Part shown: one piece after another, positions 9,623 through 39,710 of the stretch | Numbering within the stretch: the stretch's first letter is position 1 | Layout: every line of letters starts with the position of its first letter | IMG/VR virus record: IMGVR_UViG_2778261152_000009 | Location: 1 to 39,710 of that record | DNA from: a virus | Lineage: Duplodnaviria > Heunggongvirae > Uroviricota > Caudoviricetes | Strand: one strand, 5' to 3' | Length of the DNA: 39,710 nucleotides | Made by a program: the position numbers and the translations under genes | Notes under the pieces: generated by a model | The model's database searches: none | What the model was told of the DNA's origin: nothing | The model's input: the letters and a program-made list of their open reading frames with translations, nothing else

Positions 9623-9895
9623 TTACCTCGCTGTCAGTTGTTTTGATTTCCGGTAGCCTGCCGCGTAAATGGCTACGTTTGGCAGGCAAATACTTCCACT
9701 GCATTCATCTACCTTCTTGCAGCGAAGGCTTCCGAGTGATGCTGCTTTATCTGCCCTGACGCAACCAGAGAGCTTTAGCGCAATTTTTCGTGCCAATCGC
9801 TGTTCTTGCATTGCCTGTTCACGTTGAGCCTGTCTGCGTGCTCTGCGGCGATTTCTGGCGTTATCGTCAGCCAGATATGTAATGACTACTGTCAT
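9623..9895 (-). CDS. N-like transcription antiterminator (P22 gp24-like)
   Basis: 90-aa ORF with an N-terminal arginine-rich motif NARNRRRARRQAQREQ and C-terminal ...AIYAAGYRKSKQLTAR resembling P22 gp24 from memory; first gene downstream of the pL/nutL region. Confidence 0.7.
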   Translation of the reverse strand: MTVVITYLADDNARNRRRARRQAQREQAMQEQRLARKIALKLSGCVRADKAASLGSLRCKKVDECSGSICLPNVAIYAAGYRKSKQLTAR

Positions 9896-10002
9896 GTTGA
9901 CCTCCGATGATTGACTTTGGCGGTGACGCGCCGGGTGCTTATCTTCCGGTTGCCGTCGTGCAGCTGCACTTCACGTCACCCCAAAGCCAACTACTCTTTG
10001 GT

Positions 10003-10044
10003 TCCCGCATTTCGGCGGGACAATCCCATCAATGTTAAAGAGCC
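10003..10044 (-). promoter_or_regulatory. nutL site (boxA + boxB)
   Basis: Minus strand reads GGCTCTTTAACA (boxA-like, close to rrn boxA GCTCTTTAACA) then 12 nt then TCCCGCCGAAATGCGGGA (boxB hairpin); the boxB is identical to the one downstream of cro. Confidence 0.65.
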
Positions 10045-10090
10045 TGCCAATCTGTTCCGTTTGGCTTCCAGCGTCCTGCTGATGGCTAAA

Positions 10091-10177
10091 GAATACTGTA
10101 GGTATTTTATTGTGTAAATACCCAAGGTATTTATTTTTGATGAAATAATGATAAACAAATGAATACAAAGGATATTT
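10091..10177. promoter_or_regulatory. OL operator cluster / pL region
   Basis: Three imperfect palindromes of form ATAC-N5-GTAT: GAATACTGTAGGTATT (10091-10106), AAATACCCAAGGTATTT (10116-10132), GAATACAAAGGATATTT (10161-10177); same motif family as in the cI-cro intergenic region. Confidence 0.5.
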
Positions 10178-10262
10178 ATTTTTTCGCTGTCTGCTTGTTC
10201 AGTGATTTTTATGCGGGATATGTGAAGTGGATCCCGATAGCTATTGCTGCCGGGATTATGGG

Positions 10263-10652
10263 TTAGTCAGCGAAGGTTAAGACGAGAATTACCTTAATGA
10301 TGTCTGCTACAACAGACACGGCCATAGATAAACCAAAGACGATCCAAGCCACAGTGATGTCTTCACTACCATCGTATAGAGTTCCGTAATCACTGGTGTA
10401 AGGCGTAAATGTCGCGCCTTGATACAATAGGTATAAGCTTGATCCATAGAGGATAAATGCAGATATCCCTTGTATTGCTATGATCACAAGAATCATGAAA
10501 CGAGCTGATCTATGCGCCCAAGCCTGGCTTATTTTTTCTGATAGAGATTTCGCAATAAAAGCATGCGCTAAGCCGTAAATTGTCGAGATTGCCAACATCC
10601 CAAAAAAGCTTGCTATAGCGGTTCCAACCATAATCGCCCCTTGCGTGATCAA
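10263..10652 (-). CDS. Small integral membrane protein coupled to cI (rex-position gene)
   Basis: 129-aa ORF with about three hydrophobic helices; ORF-track start is a TTG overlapping the cI stop by 4 nt, alternative ATG at 10631 with AAGGGG upstream; lies between cI and OL where lambda carries rexAB. Confidence 0.6.
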   Translation of the reverse strand: MITQGAIMVGTAIASFFGMLAISTIYGLAHAFIAKSLSEKISQAWAHRSARFMILVIIAIQGISAFILYGSSLYLLYQGATFTPYTSDYGTLYDGSEDITVAWIVFGLSMAVSVVADIIKVILVLTFAD

Positions 10653-11365
10653 ACCAGCCTTAGTTTTGTCTCAATTGCAACGCCTATAATCTTGCAGTTT
10701 CCATTGATTGGCACGAGAGGCCATGCAGGATTAAGTCCCTTGAGGTATTTATTTCCGCCGTCGATTATCAGCTTCTTGAATGTTGCTTCGTTAGAGTCAG
10801 AAAGTTTTGCTATGACCAAGCTGCCGTTGATCGCCTCTCTTCCGGTATCGAAAAGAACGAATGTTCCCTCTGGAATGCTTAACCCAACCGGTGCCGTCAT
10901 TGAATCACCTTCCACTTTAAGCCAAAACGCATTACCTTGAATATGCGCGTCAGACTCAAGCCAAACATCTATGTCTTTAATGGTGTATGGTTCGCATGCT
11001 TCACACCACGAGCCAGCCTGGATACTGCTTAACACCGGATACCTCTTTCCTGCTCTGTATTCCCCTGCATACCTTACGTTGGCATCGCTCTTAAGGCTTT
11101 CTGCCTGTTCTGCAACCTTGGCAGCAATTGACTGGCTAAAATCAGCAATTGAGACTTGCAACAATCGTGCAAAACCAGATGCAACCTCAACGTTTAGCGC
11201 GTTTCTGCCATTAAGATAATGCCCTACCGCTCCTTGGGTGATACCCAGTTCATCAGCGATTGAGTATTGGGTTATTCCCAATTCTTTCTTTTTTGACTCA
11301 TACAAAGCCTTAAGCCGCTTAGCGTCTTCGAGCTGTTCTGTCGTCAGTGATTTTTTATTTTCCAT
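10649..11365 (-). CDS. cI: CI-type prophage repressor (HTH + S24 LexA-like autopeptidase domain)
   Basis: 238 aa; N-terminus LTTEQLEDAKRLKALYESKKKELGITQYSIADELGITQGAVGHYLNG parallels lambda CI; C-terminal FWLKVEGDSMTAPVG...FKKLI carries the S24 Ser/Lys region; divergent from cro across an operator region; no obvious SD upstream (possibly leaderless as for lambda PRM). Confidence 0.9.
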   Translation of the reverse strand: MENKKSLTTEQLEDAKRLKALYESKKKELGITQYSIADELGITQGAVGHYLNGRNALNVEVASGFARLLQVSIADFSQSIAAKVAEQAESLKSDANVRYAGEYRAGKRYPVLSSIQAGSWCEACEPYTIKDIDVWLESDAHIQGNAFWLKVEGDSMTAPVGLSIPEGTFVLFDTGREAINGSLVIAKLSDSNEATFKKLIIDGGNKYLKGLNPAWPLVPINGNCKIIGVAIETKLRLV

Positions 11366-11471
11366 AGCTTAATTCTAATAGCTAAGGTACTTAAACTAAA
11401 AATACCCTGAGTATTGATTGTCTTGAATACCTGTAGTATTCTTTGTTCATGGTTAATAACGGAGAGTGCAT
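11366..11471. promoter_or_regulatory. OR operator / PRM-PR divergent promoter region
   Basis: Intergenic region between divergent cI and cro containing palindromes AATACCCTGAGTATT (11401-11415) and GAATACCTGTAGTATTC (11425-11441), centres about 25 bp apart. Confidence 0.6.
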
Positions 11472-11666
11472 ATGATTCGAATGACACTTGCCGATTACGC
11501 CAAAATCCATGGACAGGCTAAAGCAGCCAGTGACTTTGGTGTAATCCAGTGCGCTATCAGCAAGGCCATTCTGGCAGGCCGTAACATCATGGTTACGGTA
11601 AAGCCTGATGGCAGTGTGATTGGAGAGGAAGTTCGTCCTTTCCCAAGCAACAAGAAAAACAAATAG
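11472..11666 (+). CDS. cro: Cro repressor
   Basis: ORF track starts at a GTG (11466); first ATG at 11472 has GGAGAG 5 nt upstream; product [62 protein letters not shown] closely parallels lambda Cro. Confidence 0.85.
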
Positions 11667-11672
11667 TAACAC

Positions 11673-11716
11673 CGCTCTTTAACAGTCATGGTCCTCATTC
11701 CCGCCGAAATGCGGGA
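11673..11716 (+). promoter_or_regulatory. nutR site (boxA + boxB)
   Basis: CGCTCTTTAACA (11673-11684) followed 14 nt later by the hairpin TCCCGCCGAAATGCGGGA (11699-11716), between cro and cII. Confidence 0.7.
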
Positions 11717-18941: not shown

Positions 18942-19016
18942 GGGTCAGTCGTATAAAGGTCATTACGGAAGGCTGTTAACCTTCTTATCGTGGTTCGAGT
19001 CCACGCTGTCCCGCCA
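18942..19016 (+). tRNA. tRNA-like gene, anticodon GUU (Asn-like), imperfect cloverleaf
   Basis: Manual fold: perfect T-arm CGTGG-TTCGAGT-CCACG, perfect anticodon arm GAAGG-CTGTTAA-CCTTC with U33/A37, D-loop with GG, encoded CCA; acceptor and D stems each have one U-U mismatch. Confidence 0.4.
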
Positions 19017-19021
19017 AATAT

Positions 19022-19097
19022 GTTGGTTTAGCTCCAATGGTAGAGCAGTCGCCTTGTAAGCGAATGGGTAGCGGTTCAAGTCCGTTAACCAGCACCA
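19022..19097 (+). tRNA. tRNA, anticodon UGU (Thr)
   Basis: Manual fold: acceptor GTTGGTT/AACCAGC (one G-U), U8, D-arm GCTC-CAATGGTA-GAGC, anticodon loop CTTGTAA, T-arm AGCGG-TTCAAGT-CCGTT, discriminator A, encoded CCA; 5 nt after the first tRNA-like gene. Confidence 0.5.
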
Positions 19098-35592: not shown

Positions 35593-35853
35593 TTAGCTGC
35601 TGTCTTTTTTATATAGCTCTTTGAGCGTATCAAAGACAATTTTCTTAACCATATCGGATTGTTGTTCTGCCATACGCTCTGCATCGTCAATGTAAACTGA
35701 TGCAGAGTTTTGTTTATCCAGTGATTCTTCAATCGCTGCAATTATCTCTGAGTTCAGAGACCTGTTATTCATCTTCGCACGCTGTTTAATTTTCGCGTGG
35801 AGTTCATGCGGAAGTCTCAAGTGAAACTGCGCCTCGTCGTATTTGCTGTACAT
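35593..35853 (-). CDS. mnt: Mnt-like ribbon-helix-helix repressor
   Basis: ORF 35593..35886; internal Met at 35853 gives 86 aa; FHLRLPHELHAKIKQRAKMNNRSLNSEIIAAIEESL and DDAERMAEQQSDMVKKIVFDTLKELYKK parallel P22 Mnt (FNFRMPMEVREKLKFRAEANGRSMNSELLQIVQDAL...NDAERLADEQSELVKKMVFDTLKDLYKK). Confidence 0.75.
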   Translation of the reverse strand: MYSKYDEAQFHLRLPHELHAKIKQRAKMNNRSLNSEIIAAIEESLDKQNSASVYIDDAERMAEQQSDMVKKIVFDTLKELYKKDSS

Positions 35854-35974
35854 CCTTGATGCCTCACCAGGTGGGTGGAATGGCATCGTAACTTACTGGA
35901 TAAATACTCAATAGTACCATTTCGGTATGCAATCACATCATGGTTGCATCATATCATTCGTCTGGAGCAATGAA

Positions 35975-38193: not shown

Positions 38194-38227
38194 GGCAAGA
38201 GGTAGAAACCACCTCTTGCCATTTATT
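38194..38227. terminator. Bidirectional terminator between convergent tailspike and membrane-protein genes
   Basis: Perfect 10-bp stem GGCAAGAGGT / ACCTCTTGCC with 7-nt loop, followed by ATTTATT on the plus strand and preceded by an A/T-rich run on the minus strand. Confidence 0.6.
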
Positions 38228-39710
38228 AATCTCCTAGCTTAATGAAATAAATTCCATTCATAACTGTTATTGAGTCCGCGTCAGGCCATGACGGAATGAG
38301 TTTTAATTTTTCTTTTTCGTCGTTACTTGCAATGTGTAAATTTAAAGAAAACCCACTTATCATTGCTGCATATTTTGTAATTCTACGAGGATCTCCTCCT
38401 GAAAAACTAAACATTGACTCACCAAAGGTGTCAGAATTATTTTTTTTCCAAGGGTTGTATGTGGGATACGCACCGATGAAACTTACGACATCCGTTGACG
38501 GATTAAAGTTACCATACTTACTTTGTAGTTGGGACAATATCCTGTTAGTTATGTTGGAATCTATCTCTCTTGCCATTGCATCAGAGTAAAAGAGCATATT
38601 TACTGTTGATGCACTATAGTAAACTACAATTGTGCAAATTAGGGCTGACAGTGTGCTTTTTACTTTGCTGCATGTTTTTAATTTTTCTATAGCGAAAGCA
38701 AATAGAAAAGCGAATGTTGCAGATAACCCAAGCAAAACTCTGGGTCCCTGTATGCCCCCGAGTCCGATAACCACAAAGAAGGGGCTGATTGCTAATGTTA
38801 ATATTGATATTAATTTTATAATATTTTTATCATGATTGATTACCTGACTATAGGAAAGAAAAACAACGGGAACCACCATGAACGGAATAATGCTAGCCCC
38901 AAAATAATAATCACCTGTGAGTGTTGATATCACAACCTCACTCACCCTTTGAAGCGTTTCGTATACAGGTTCTTTTAGCCAGTGAAAGGTGTCTTTAAGA
39001 TATGTGGGTGTGGTTACGTTGAATATAGCATGACTTAAAAAAACTATTATATAATAAATGGATGTAGCAAGTATTATTGCAAACGAAAATATTGAAAAAC
39101 ATTTAATGATTCTCTTTTTGCATTCTTCATTACATTTTGCAATGAATTGCATTAAAAATACAACGACAGGGAAAGAGATTAGTGATTGATATATTCCTAG
39201 TGAAAAGGTAAGCACTAAAACCCCAATAAATAGAAGTTTTATATTTACTTTGTCTTTTCCAAAGATTGAAGAATAAAGTATCAGACCTGATATACATGCG
39301 AGAAGTTGACCTAATGCAACGGTATCGGACTGCTGAGCAAACTCAGCTTGATAAGCAAATTGCGGAAATGATACAAAAATAATAGCAAACATTATCCTTG
39401 TACTAAGGAGCTTAAACGTGTTTACAGCTAATAAGAAAGCAGTTATAACATTAAGCGCTAACATTACGAGAGTTGTAAACCCCGGCGTGTAGGCGTTTAC
39501 CCTAAATATATAGTCGATTATTGCTGAACCCCACCGCCCTAGAGAAATCCACCATAAAATACCTTCATTAGGCCATGAAAAAAAAGCGTACTCTGTGTCT
39601 ATTGATATAGAAAAGTTGGTTAGGTTTTGAAAATAAACGAGTAAAGACGTTATAAATGCTATAACCATTATCTTAATGCTATTGGCGTTTATTTCTTTTT
39701 TTAAATTCAT
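38226..39710 (-). CDS. Polytopic membrane protein, candidate O-antigen-modifying GtrC-like (serotype conversion)
   Basis: 494 aa with many hydrophobic helices over ~380 residues then a hydrophilic C-terminal domain; markedly AT-rich compared with the rest of the window; convergent with the tailspike at the prophage edge; start codon is at the last bases of the window, so any upstream partners are not visible. Confidence 0.45.
   Translation of the reverse strand: MNLKKEINANSIKIMVIAFITSLLVYFQNLTNFSISIDTEYAFFSWPNEGILWWISLGRWGSAIIDYIFRVNAYTPGFTTLVMLALNVITAFLLAVNTFKLLSTRIMFAIIFVSFPQFAYQAEFAQQSDTVALGQLLACISGLILYSSIFGKDKVNIKLLFIGVLVLTFSLGIYQSLISFPVVVFLMQFIAKCNEECKKRIIKCFSIFSFAIILATSIYYIIVFLSHAIFNVTTPTYLKDTFHWLKEPVYETLQRVSEVVISTLTGDYYFGASIIPFMVVPVVFLSYSQVINHDKNIIKLISILTLAISPFFVVIGLGGIQGPRVLLGLSATFAFLFAFAIEKLKTCSKVKSTLSALICTIVVYYSASTVNMLFYSDAMAREIDSNITNRILSQLQSKYGNFNPSTDVVSFIGAYPTYNPWKKNNSDTFGESMFSFSGGDPRRITKYAAMISGFSLNLHIASNDEKEKLKLIPSWPDADSITVMNGIYFIKLGD

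Follow-up and report, generated by a model that had tools for sequence, protein, structure and literature searches.

HkaS, a predicted three-helix membrane protein in the repressor operon of HK620-type prophages, as a candidate phage-exclusion factor

Introduction

The interval between the repressor gene cI and the OL operators is transcribed in every lysogen and houses classic, still poorly understood defence genes, among them rexAB and bstA. In phage lambda, rexA and rexB occupy this slot downstream of cI and upstream of OL/pL, and RexB is a protein of 144 residues that is described with four helices. Phage BTP1 carries bstA in the corresponding interval between cI and N, a hotspot of mosaic diversity, where the gene lies directly downstream of cI, is presumed to be read from the cI promoter, is highly expressed in the lysogen and keeps its position across prophages (PMC8585504). 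[quoted passage not shown] In the LF82 prophage Perceval, the slot (CU651637.1, 1178432-1179982) holds a 340-aa gene and a 168-aa transmembrane gene, both uncharacterised; lysogen RNA-seq places the transmembrane gene 81-fold above the prophage background and above cI itself, and the 340-aa gene, which lies between the transmembrane gene and cI, is also expressed in the lysogen (PMC9928086).

Small membrane proteins that act on incoming phage DNA provide a second point of comparison. [quoted passage not shown] T4 Imm, cited in PMC11436027, is a tiny protein, embedded in the membrane over nearly its whole length, that prevents phage DNA from being injected at the inner membrane.

Here we describe the occupant of the cI-OL slot in IMG/VR virus record IMGVR_UViG_2778261152_000009, a stretch of 39,710 nt that we refer to as the window. 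The window is a mosaic prophage in which an integrase and an early region of mEpX2-like type are joined to CUS-3/P22-like virion genes. A gene in the cI-OL slot will be no surprise to a specialist; the gene found here, hkaS, is notable for being conserved, for being common in E. coli prophages, including those of Stx phages, and for its presence in the model phage HK620.

Results

The open reading frame at 10263-10652 (minus strand) is hkaS of coliphage HK620, whose GenBank record gives the product as "unknown"; the HK630 record has "HkaS protein", and RefSeq lists the same 369-bp coding sequence as a "hypothetical protein". The window protein is 99.2% identical to HK620 HkaS and matches PHROG 6534, a family of unknown function, at E=2.9e-79 over residues 8-129 of the 129-aa reading frame and positions 1-122 of the 122 in the profile. 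The original prediction had seen in the gene a candidate for an undescribed function; as an open reading frame the gene is not undescribed, having been named hkaS since the HK620 record and being represented in HK630 and PHROG 6534 as well. Over the surrounding 1.8 kb (9900-11700) the window aligns free of indels with coliphages HK620, HK630, HZ41 and mEpX2 at 99.6-99.7% identity, and operator and promoter coordinates were carried over from the HK620 annotation through an indel-free match of 1801 of 1801 bases at 99.6% identity.

Two starts had been proposed for the gene, a TTG overlapping the cI stop and an ATG at 10631 with an AAGGGG ribosome-binding site, giving a polytopic protein of 122-129 residues. 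Homologues at 52-83% identity all start at the ATG equivalent to 10631, and all have 122 residues that align without gaps. The Salmonella locus carries an in-frame TAA directly 5' of the hkaS ATG, and the equivalent of the TTG in the Hafnia-like locus is out of frame with hkaS; the TTG at 10652, and with it the stop-start overlap with cI, therefore fails in the diverged homologues and is rejected. The ATG start, on which the homologues and the HK620 and RefSeq coding sequences agree, places hkaS at 10263..10631 (minus strand; 122 codons and a stop), so that the shorter, 122-residue form of the proposed protein stands and the 129-residue form does not. This assignment of a predicted three-TM inner-membrane protein draws on the HK620, HK630 and RefSeq coding sequences, PHROG 6534, the homologue starts, dN/dS and an AF2 model.

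The spacer from the cI stop to the hkaS ATG is 17 nt in the window and 17-20 nt in homologues, with no overlap between the genes. Within it a Shine-Dalgarno sequence, AAGGGG at 10637..10642 (minus strand), can be read directly from the sequence 5 nt 5' of the ATG; AAGGA is its equivalent in the Salmonella, metagenomic and Hafnia-like loci, and a conserved AAGG(A/G) is found 5-7 nt 5' of the ATG. Folding of the junction RNA gave no significant or conserved structure (z-scores -1.2 to +0.9), and structure-mediated translational coupling of hkaS to cI is rejected on this ground. With its own Shine-Dalgarno and an unstructured junction, hkaS is probably translated independently, or aided merely by ribosome proximity. 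The translational coupling that had been suggested thus survives only in the loose sense of close spacing, and strict coupling is not supported given the failure of the TTG start, the 17-nt spacer, the separate Shine-Dalgarno and the lack of junction structure. Three database alleles of hkaS (P0006, P0007 and P0009) read out of frame through the TM1 region between homopolymer runs and then return to frame; the runs concerned are the G-run of the Shine-Dalgarno, a T6 and an A6, and the shifts represent either sequencing errors or slippage-prone runs.

The immunity region of the window runs in the order cro (plus strand), OR, cI, hkaS, a hairpin, OL3-OL1/pL, nutL and N, with cI through N on the minus strand. 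The upstream gene of the operon, cI (10649..11365, minus strand), encodes a 238-aa repressor with HTH_3 and Peptidase_S24 domains and is supported by the ORF list, Pfam, PHROG and the HK620 annotation. OR3-OR2-OR1 and pR (11376..11449, no strand assigned) follow the HK620 annotation, in which pRM is unannotated; the pRM that would serve cI and hkaS is placed here by analogy with lambda and P22. OL1-OL2-OL3 and pL (10083..10154, minus strand; transferred from HK620) form the downstream border of the slot, and the OL3 core AAAAATAAATA..TATTCAT is conserved in four of four lineages. On the far side of the cI-N interval lies the antiterminator gene N (9623..9895, minus strand), the first gene of the pL operon (Pfam N_peptide, E=1e-15; PHROG 271). 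The cI domains and the HK620-derived operator coordinates confirm that hkaS lies between cI and OL/pL, as had been proposed, and the lambda record likewise bears out that rexA-rexB occupies the same slot.

Six nucleotides after the hkaS stop, folding identified a hairpin (10231..10256, minus strand) that is the likely 3' end or terminator of the immunity transcript and hence a tIMM candidate. The fold of 10140-10275 (minus strand) gave this hairpin a z-score of -2.8, and in each lineage a strong hairpin begins 6-25 nt past the hkaS stop; the hairpin sequence is common to the window and the Hafnia-like locus and is unrelated in the Salmonella and metagenomic loci, where it holds the same position. 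The window hairpin lacks a U-tract and none of the others has a good one, which is why the terminator scan missed them. The HK620 GenBank record puts tIMM on the AT-rich OL3 palindrome (window 10151-10181, minus strand); as a candidate for the end of the immunity transcript, the hairpin after hkaS appears the more plausible of the two. Between cI and hkaS the terminator scan found no terminator-like site, no internal hkaS promoter analogous to pLIT was found at the scan threshold, and an Rfam scan of the window returned two tRNAs only, both away from hkaS. From this operon anatomy, which is conserved in every homologous locus examined, we strongly infer that cI and hkaS are co-transcribed in lysogens. 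Expression of hkaS in lysogens is accordingly rated as probable, and the anatomy and the membrane location of the gene product as very probable. A hydrophobic plus-strand reading frame of 35 aa at 10159-10266 (MNTKDIYFFAVCLF...), convergent to hkaS, was considered as a possible small toxin and rejected, because its ATG falls within OL3, the frame runs across the hairpin downstream of hkaS, and in the Hafnia-like locus it breaks off after 12 codons. It is probably spurious.

Hydropathy analysis of HkaS gave three hydrophobic segments, which are matched by three long helices (residues 2-29, 41-73 and 89-121) in an AF2 model with a mean pLDDT of 92 that was built from a seven-sequence input, and the earlier description of a polytopic membrane protein is upheld by this agreement. 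The model further contains a short amphipathic helix at 31-38 and a small beta-hairpin in the 74-88 loop. No signal peptide, lipobox or soluble domain was found in the sequence. Loop 1 carries a net charge of +3 to +5 in all lineages and loop 2 a net charge of -1 to -4, and because loop 1 is basic and loop 2 acidic, the positive-inside rule predicts an N-out/C-in inner-membrane protein with a cytoplasmic loop 1 and a periplasmic loop 2. Only about 20 residues would face the periplasm.

Sequence conservation across the family is distributed unevenly over this predicted topology. The cytoplasmic loop has 71% mean pairwise identity with W38, H40 and R44-F45 invariant, and the last ten residues, K-x-I-L/F-V-L-T-F-A-D, are nearly invariant at 88% identity; the most conserved surface is cytoplasmic and consists of W38-x-H40-R-x-x-R44-F and this C-terminal motif. 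TM3a and the periplasmic loop are the least conserved parts, at 47-54%. Such a face is suggestive of a conserved partner, from the host or the membrane, at the cytoplasmic surface. In TM3, D110 and K113 form a buried pair that is invariant in six lineage representatives, and a single allele among 15 from E. coli has D110G. Lineages differ from one another in the periplasmic loop, and within the E. coli alleles one of its 22 positions is variable; an arms-race signature in this loop was considered and is unsupported, the loop not being hypervariable within these alleles.

A word-indexed search of 5.8 billion proteins with HkaS recovered 12 clusters, all of them members of the family, and an exhaustive HMM profile search of 1.84 billion representative proteins gave two matches, one full-length and one a fragment; at this depth the family appears to be without detectable distant relatives. 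Its hosts are prophages of Escherichia, Salmonella, Enterobacter and Hafnia only, and every member is listed as a hypothetical protein. At least 1000 contigs carry the exact window protein, and hkaS is present in 146 of 5426 complete E. coli genomes (~2.7%), always on the chromosome and at 95-100% identity. In the phage collection 16 records carry this cI at 99% identity or above and 16 records carry hkaS, and the 12 records named in both the cI and the hkaS listings are the same records. The backbones that carry hkaS include P22-like (HK620 and the window), lambda-like (HK630) and Stx2c-converting phages, and mEpX2 and HK140 have the gene as well. In the Salmonella, Hafnia-like, metagenomic and E. 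coli loci the order is fixed, with cro divergent from cI and cI followed by hkaS, OL and N, and the replication and recombination modules of the diverged loci differ.

The dS that separates the window from the Hafnia-like locus is 0.67 in hkaS and 0.73 in cI, and since these values are alike the two genes share one history; the corresponding dN/dS is 0.14 for hkaS and 0.03 for cI. Wherever dS is measurable, the dN/dS of hkaS lies at 0.14-0.20. In deeper comparisons synonymous sites are saturated, and pN is 0.27-0.33 for hkaS and 0.07-0.08 for cI. These substitution patterns indicate that hkaS is under purifying selection, with protein change about four times faster than in cI, and that it has been co-inherited with its cI type past synonymous saturation as virion and replication modules were swapped around the pair. 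GC content is 42% in hkaS, 45% in cI, to which hkaS is thus close, and 34.5% in a clearly foreign gtrC-like gene that lies at the right-hand end. We conclude that the HK620-type immunity operon has in hkaS a genuine accessory gene.

Profile, defence-model, PDB and fold searches all ended without a specific match, in keeping with the original prediction that no family could be recognised. The best Pfam match, TssN at E=0.043, is far under the cut-off and no significant family was found; NCBIfam likewise returned nothing significant (TIGR01593, E=0.08, 12.9 bits against a cut-off of 40.2), PADLOC-DB 2.0.0 gave zero families at E<=10 for three diverged HkaS members, the PDB sequence search gave no match, and fold searches retrieved generic helical bundles only. 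The hhalign probabilities were 0.7% for RexB, 0.3% for SieA, 0.1% for SieB and 0.45% for the P22 gp13 holin. As far as these comparisons reach, HkaS is without relation to RexB, SieA, SieB, holins or any Pfam, NCBIfam, PADLOC or PDB entry. Searches of the window by tblastn with RexA, SieB and hkaP were empty, and the window contains no SieA, SieB/hkaP or RexAB homologue, that is, no alternative exclusion gene. The absence of a RexA-like partner that had been remarked on earlier is thus confirmed, both by the empty RexA search in the window and by the succession of cI, hkaS and operators in all loci. The literature searched on hkaS, HK620 lysogen exclusion, mEpX2 and HK620 transcriptomes gave no function or expression data for hkaS.

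Set beside the described systems, HkaS finds its closest architectural match in P22 SieA: for HkaS, three TM helices are predicted, no partner gene accompanies it, and the most conserved surface is predicted to be cytoplasmic. SieA differs in its length of 162-164 aa, in having its own promoter and in lying beside ejection-protein and immI genes rather than in a cI operon, and its motif FnRYPnEAnnFNK is absent from HkaS. Lambda RexB occupies the same slot in the cI immunity transcript and is, like HkaS as predicted, a small polytopic inner-membrane protein; it has no sequence relation to HkaS, however, and it has a RexA partner, which is found in no hkaS locus. BstA is set apart by the small size and predicted membrane character of HkaS and by the aba element, for which no counterpart was identified at hkaS. 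T4 Imm resembles HkaS in being tiny and nearly all membrane, but it has two helices, is shorter and comes from a lytic phage, and HkaS matches no significant Pfam family. Class I holins such as lambda S and P22 gp13 share with HkaS, as predicted, three TM segments, an N-out/C-in orientation and a similar size, whereas they carry a charged cytoplasmic C-terminal tail and HkaS ends ...ILVLTFAD in or just after TM3. Holins moreover belong to the lysis cassette, and hkaS belongs to the immunity operon, so that its expression would be expected in healthy lysogens.

The same slot is filled differently in other phages. It is empty in P22 and in the HK620-like LF82 prophage Gally, which has a P22-type c2 repressor; with this repressor and an empty slot, the Gally RNA-seq is uninformative on hkaS. 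The Enterobacter phage BHUENT3 has a cI whose C-terminal domain is nearly identical to that of the window cI, and its slot holds a Zn-ribbon-like 127-aa CxxC...CxxC protein and a 109-aa protein with a C-terminal TM helix, a two-gene cassette with a sensor-plus-membrane layout resembling Rex. The BHUENT3 cassette and the Perceval pair LF82_153/LF82_152 are, like hkaS, uncharacterised slot cargo that includes a membrane protein; they consist of a larger soluble protein and a membrane protein, are set apart from HkaS by description and are absent from the matches of the HkaS homologue searches. In Sf6, gp38 follows directly after the repressor; it has 134 aa, begins with a signal peptide and lacks an annotated function, and gene 38 is another envelope-directed occupant of the slot. 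In the NC-SV prophage of E. coli NC101, the anti-phage sRNA svsR has been assigned to the 3' end of a lambdoid cI in a 2026 paper (PMC12803456); if NC-SV had an HK620-type cI-hkaS junction, hkaS could confound the svsR assignment.

Elsewhere in the window, a 494-aa highly polytopic membrane reading frame of 34.5% GC (38226-39710, minus strand) lies after the tailspike at the position of P22 gtrC. It is probably an O-antigen-modifying lysogenic-conversion gene, and its start codon forms the last three bases of the window. A 97-aa reading frame (35593-35886, minus strand) is flanked by the gene-16 homologue and the tailspike, an interval that in P22 contains sieA, mnt, arc and ant; its sequence looks Mnt/Arc-like, and no SieA homologue is present in this interval. 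Adjacent tRNA-Asn(GTT) and tRNA-Thr(TGT) genes lie at 18942-19097 (plus strand) in the late-regulatory region.

Discussion

The cI-OL slot is a well-known variable and defence-associated site, and the rex-slot analogy for hkaS holds. Our best explanation, taken entire, is that hkaS is an accessory gene made in lysogens whose product provides single-component exclusion, most likely by blocking entry; we advance it tentatively, its chance of being correct in every part falling somewhat short of even. Under this explanation hkaS would share its transcripts with cI, begun at pRM in the lysogen and at pRE while lysogeny is being established, HkaS would insert into the inner membrane, and it would shield the lysogen from superinfecting phages as a single-component system. 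It would do so by obstructing genome translocation across the cytoplasmic membrane in the manner of P22 SieA or T4 Imm, abortive infection being the less likely mode. The first of these steps gains support by analogy from Perceval, whose slot genes are expressed at or above the cI level in the lysogen. That HkaS has any phage-exclusion role is the side to which we lean slightly, the slot being a known home of lysogen-expressed defence in lambda (rexAB) and BTP1 (bstA), and that it acts on its own at the inner membrane to keep phage genomes from entering is, by analogy again, possible rather than probable.

An entry block is preferred because HkaS has neither an infection-sensing domain nor a partner gene, because P22 SieA is the best architectural precedent, and because hkaS coexists with many unrelated lytic modules. 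Varied backbones are tolerable for an entry blocker since the induced prophage never has to enter. Several observations nevertheless weigh against an entry block. In the searches above HkaS matched no exclusion protein, whether by homology or by a specific fold, it would expose little to the periplasm, and it has no hypervariable loop among E. coli alleles. Known entry blockers, for example sieA and HK97 gp15, sit beside virion genes, and hkaS is tied to the repressor, not to virion genes. Its strict linkage to one cI type could, in addition, reflect a role in the phage's own regulation.

A different mode of exclusion, which we consider unlikely, is that of a RexB-like abortive-infection effector without a dedicated sensor, in which HkaS would oligomerise into a latent ion pore that is triggered by a phage or host cue at its conserved cytoplasmic face, collapses the membrane potential and aborts the infection. 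The location of hkaS in the rexB slot fits such an effector, as do an almost purely transmembrane protein with polar stripes on its helices, the buried Asp110/Lys113 pair of TM3 with its invariance in six representatives, the cytoplasmic face as the most conserved region, and the two-gene sensor-plus-membrane cassettes that fill the slot in BHUENT3 and LF82 Perceval. Set against these features, a partner gene is found in no hkaS locus, RexB homology is absent (probability 0.7%), and HkaS has three helices rather than four and no cytoplasmic sensing domain. Abortive infection is further disfavoured because self-immunity would be needed against each backbone, that is, each of the many unrelated lytic modules would be obliged not to trigger HkaS upon induction.

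The function may also lie apart from phage defence, with HkaS acting on a transporter of the host, on an envelope stress pathway or on membrane homeostasis as a lysogen fitness factor in the sense of lysogenic conversion. We judge this improbable as matters stand, since nothing points positively to any particular host pathway, the characterised slot occupants are defence genes, and an evolutionary rate some four times that of cI between lineages is met more typically in genes engaged in conflict than in one whose product modulates a conserved host protein. It would nonetheless accord with the inferred co-expression with cI, with conserved cytoplasmic and membrane faces that could bind a conserved host membrane protein, with the lack of an arms-race pattern in the periplasmic loop within E. 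coli, and with how common hkaS is among natural isolates, being present in 146 of 5426 complete E. coli genomes and having its exact protein encoded by at least 1000 contigs.

We give little credence to a role in the lysis-lysogeny circuitry of the phage itself, in which HkaS would act on FtsH/HflKC or tune CII/CI stability or prophage induction. Its appeal lies in the equal numbers of cI-type and hkaS records (16 and 16), the pairing of the genes at every examined locus with equal dS, the expression that would come from pRE during establishment too, and a GC content close to that of cI and unlike that of a recent moron such as the gtrC-like gene. A gap of 17 nt is, however, enough to account for the co-inheritance, P22, Gally, Sf6 and BHUENT3 have related repressors that function with the slot empty or filled by another cassette, hkaS phages already carry cIII, and no regulatory motif is recognisable in HkaS. 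Lastly, the notion of a non-functional or spurious reading frame that chanced to lie between cI and OL, to which the lack of known homologues, the hypothetical annotations throughout and a few database variants with frame-shifted N-termini might lend colour, is effectively refuted by a dN/dS of 0.14-0.20 with saturated synonymous sites and is countered also by a length fixed at 122 aa, a conserved start and Shine-Dalgarno, a confident structure prediction from seven sequences alone, and the 146 of 146 genome copies that cover at least 80% of hkaS at 95% identity or above.

Returning to exclusion, a more far-reaching form of this interpretation is that HkaS is the founder of a new family, narrow in its taxonomic range, of membrane immunity proteins that are encoded by a single gene in the repressor operon, need no sensor and exclude heterologous phages alone, a proposal that we regard as doubtful at present. 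HkaS would work through its invariant cytoplasmic face, made up of WxHRxxRF and the C-terminal KxILVLTFAD, and would either target a conserved inner-membrane component of the host or serve as a gated pore. If this proposal is true, HkaS would be a minimal, partner-free counterpart of Rex.

In summary, our analysis presents HkaS as an uncharacterised and narrowly distributed accessory membrane protein of the repressor operon, for which an exclusion interpretation, grounded in the analogies of slot and architecture, is reasonable and consistent with all findings. The gene lends itself readily to testing, at 369 bp, with phages available in culture collections and with standard E. coli phage panels. 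If HkaS does something other than exclude phages, it would still be a conserved membrane factor that is probably expressed in lysogens. If it does exclude phages, it would be among the smallest self-sufficient prophage defences known and would bear on phage-therapy host range and on competition among Stx phages.
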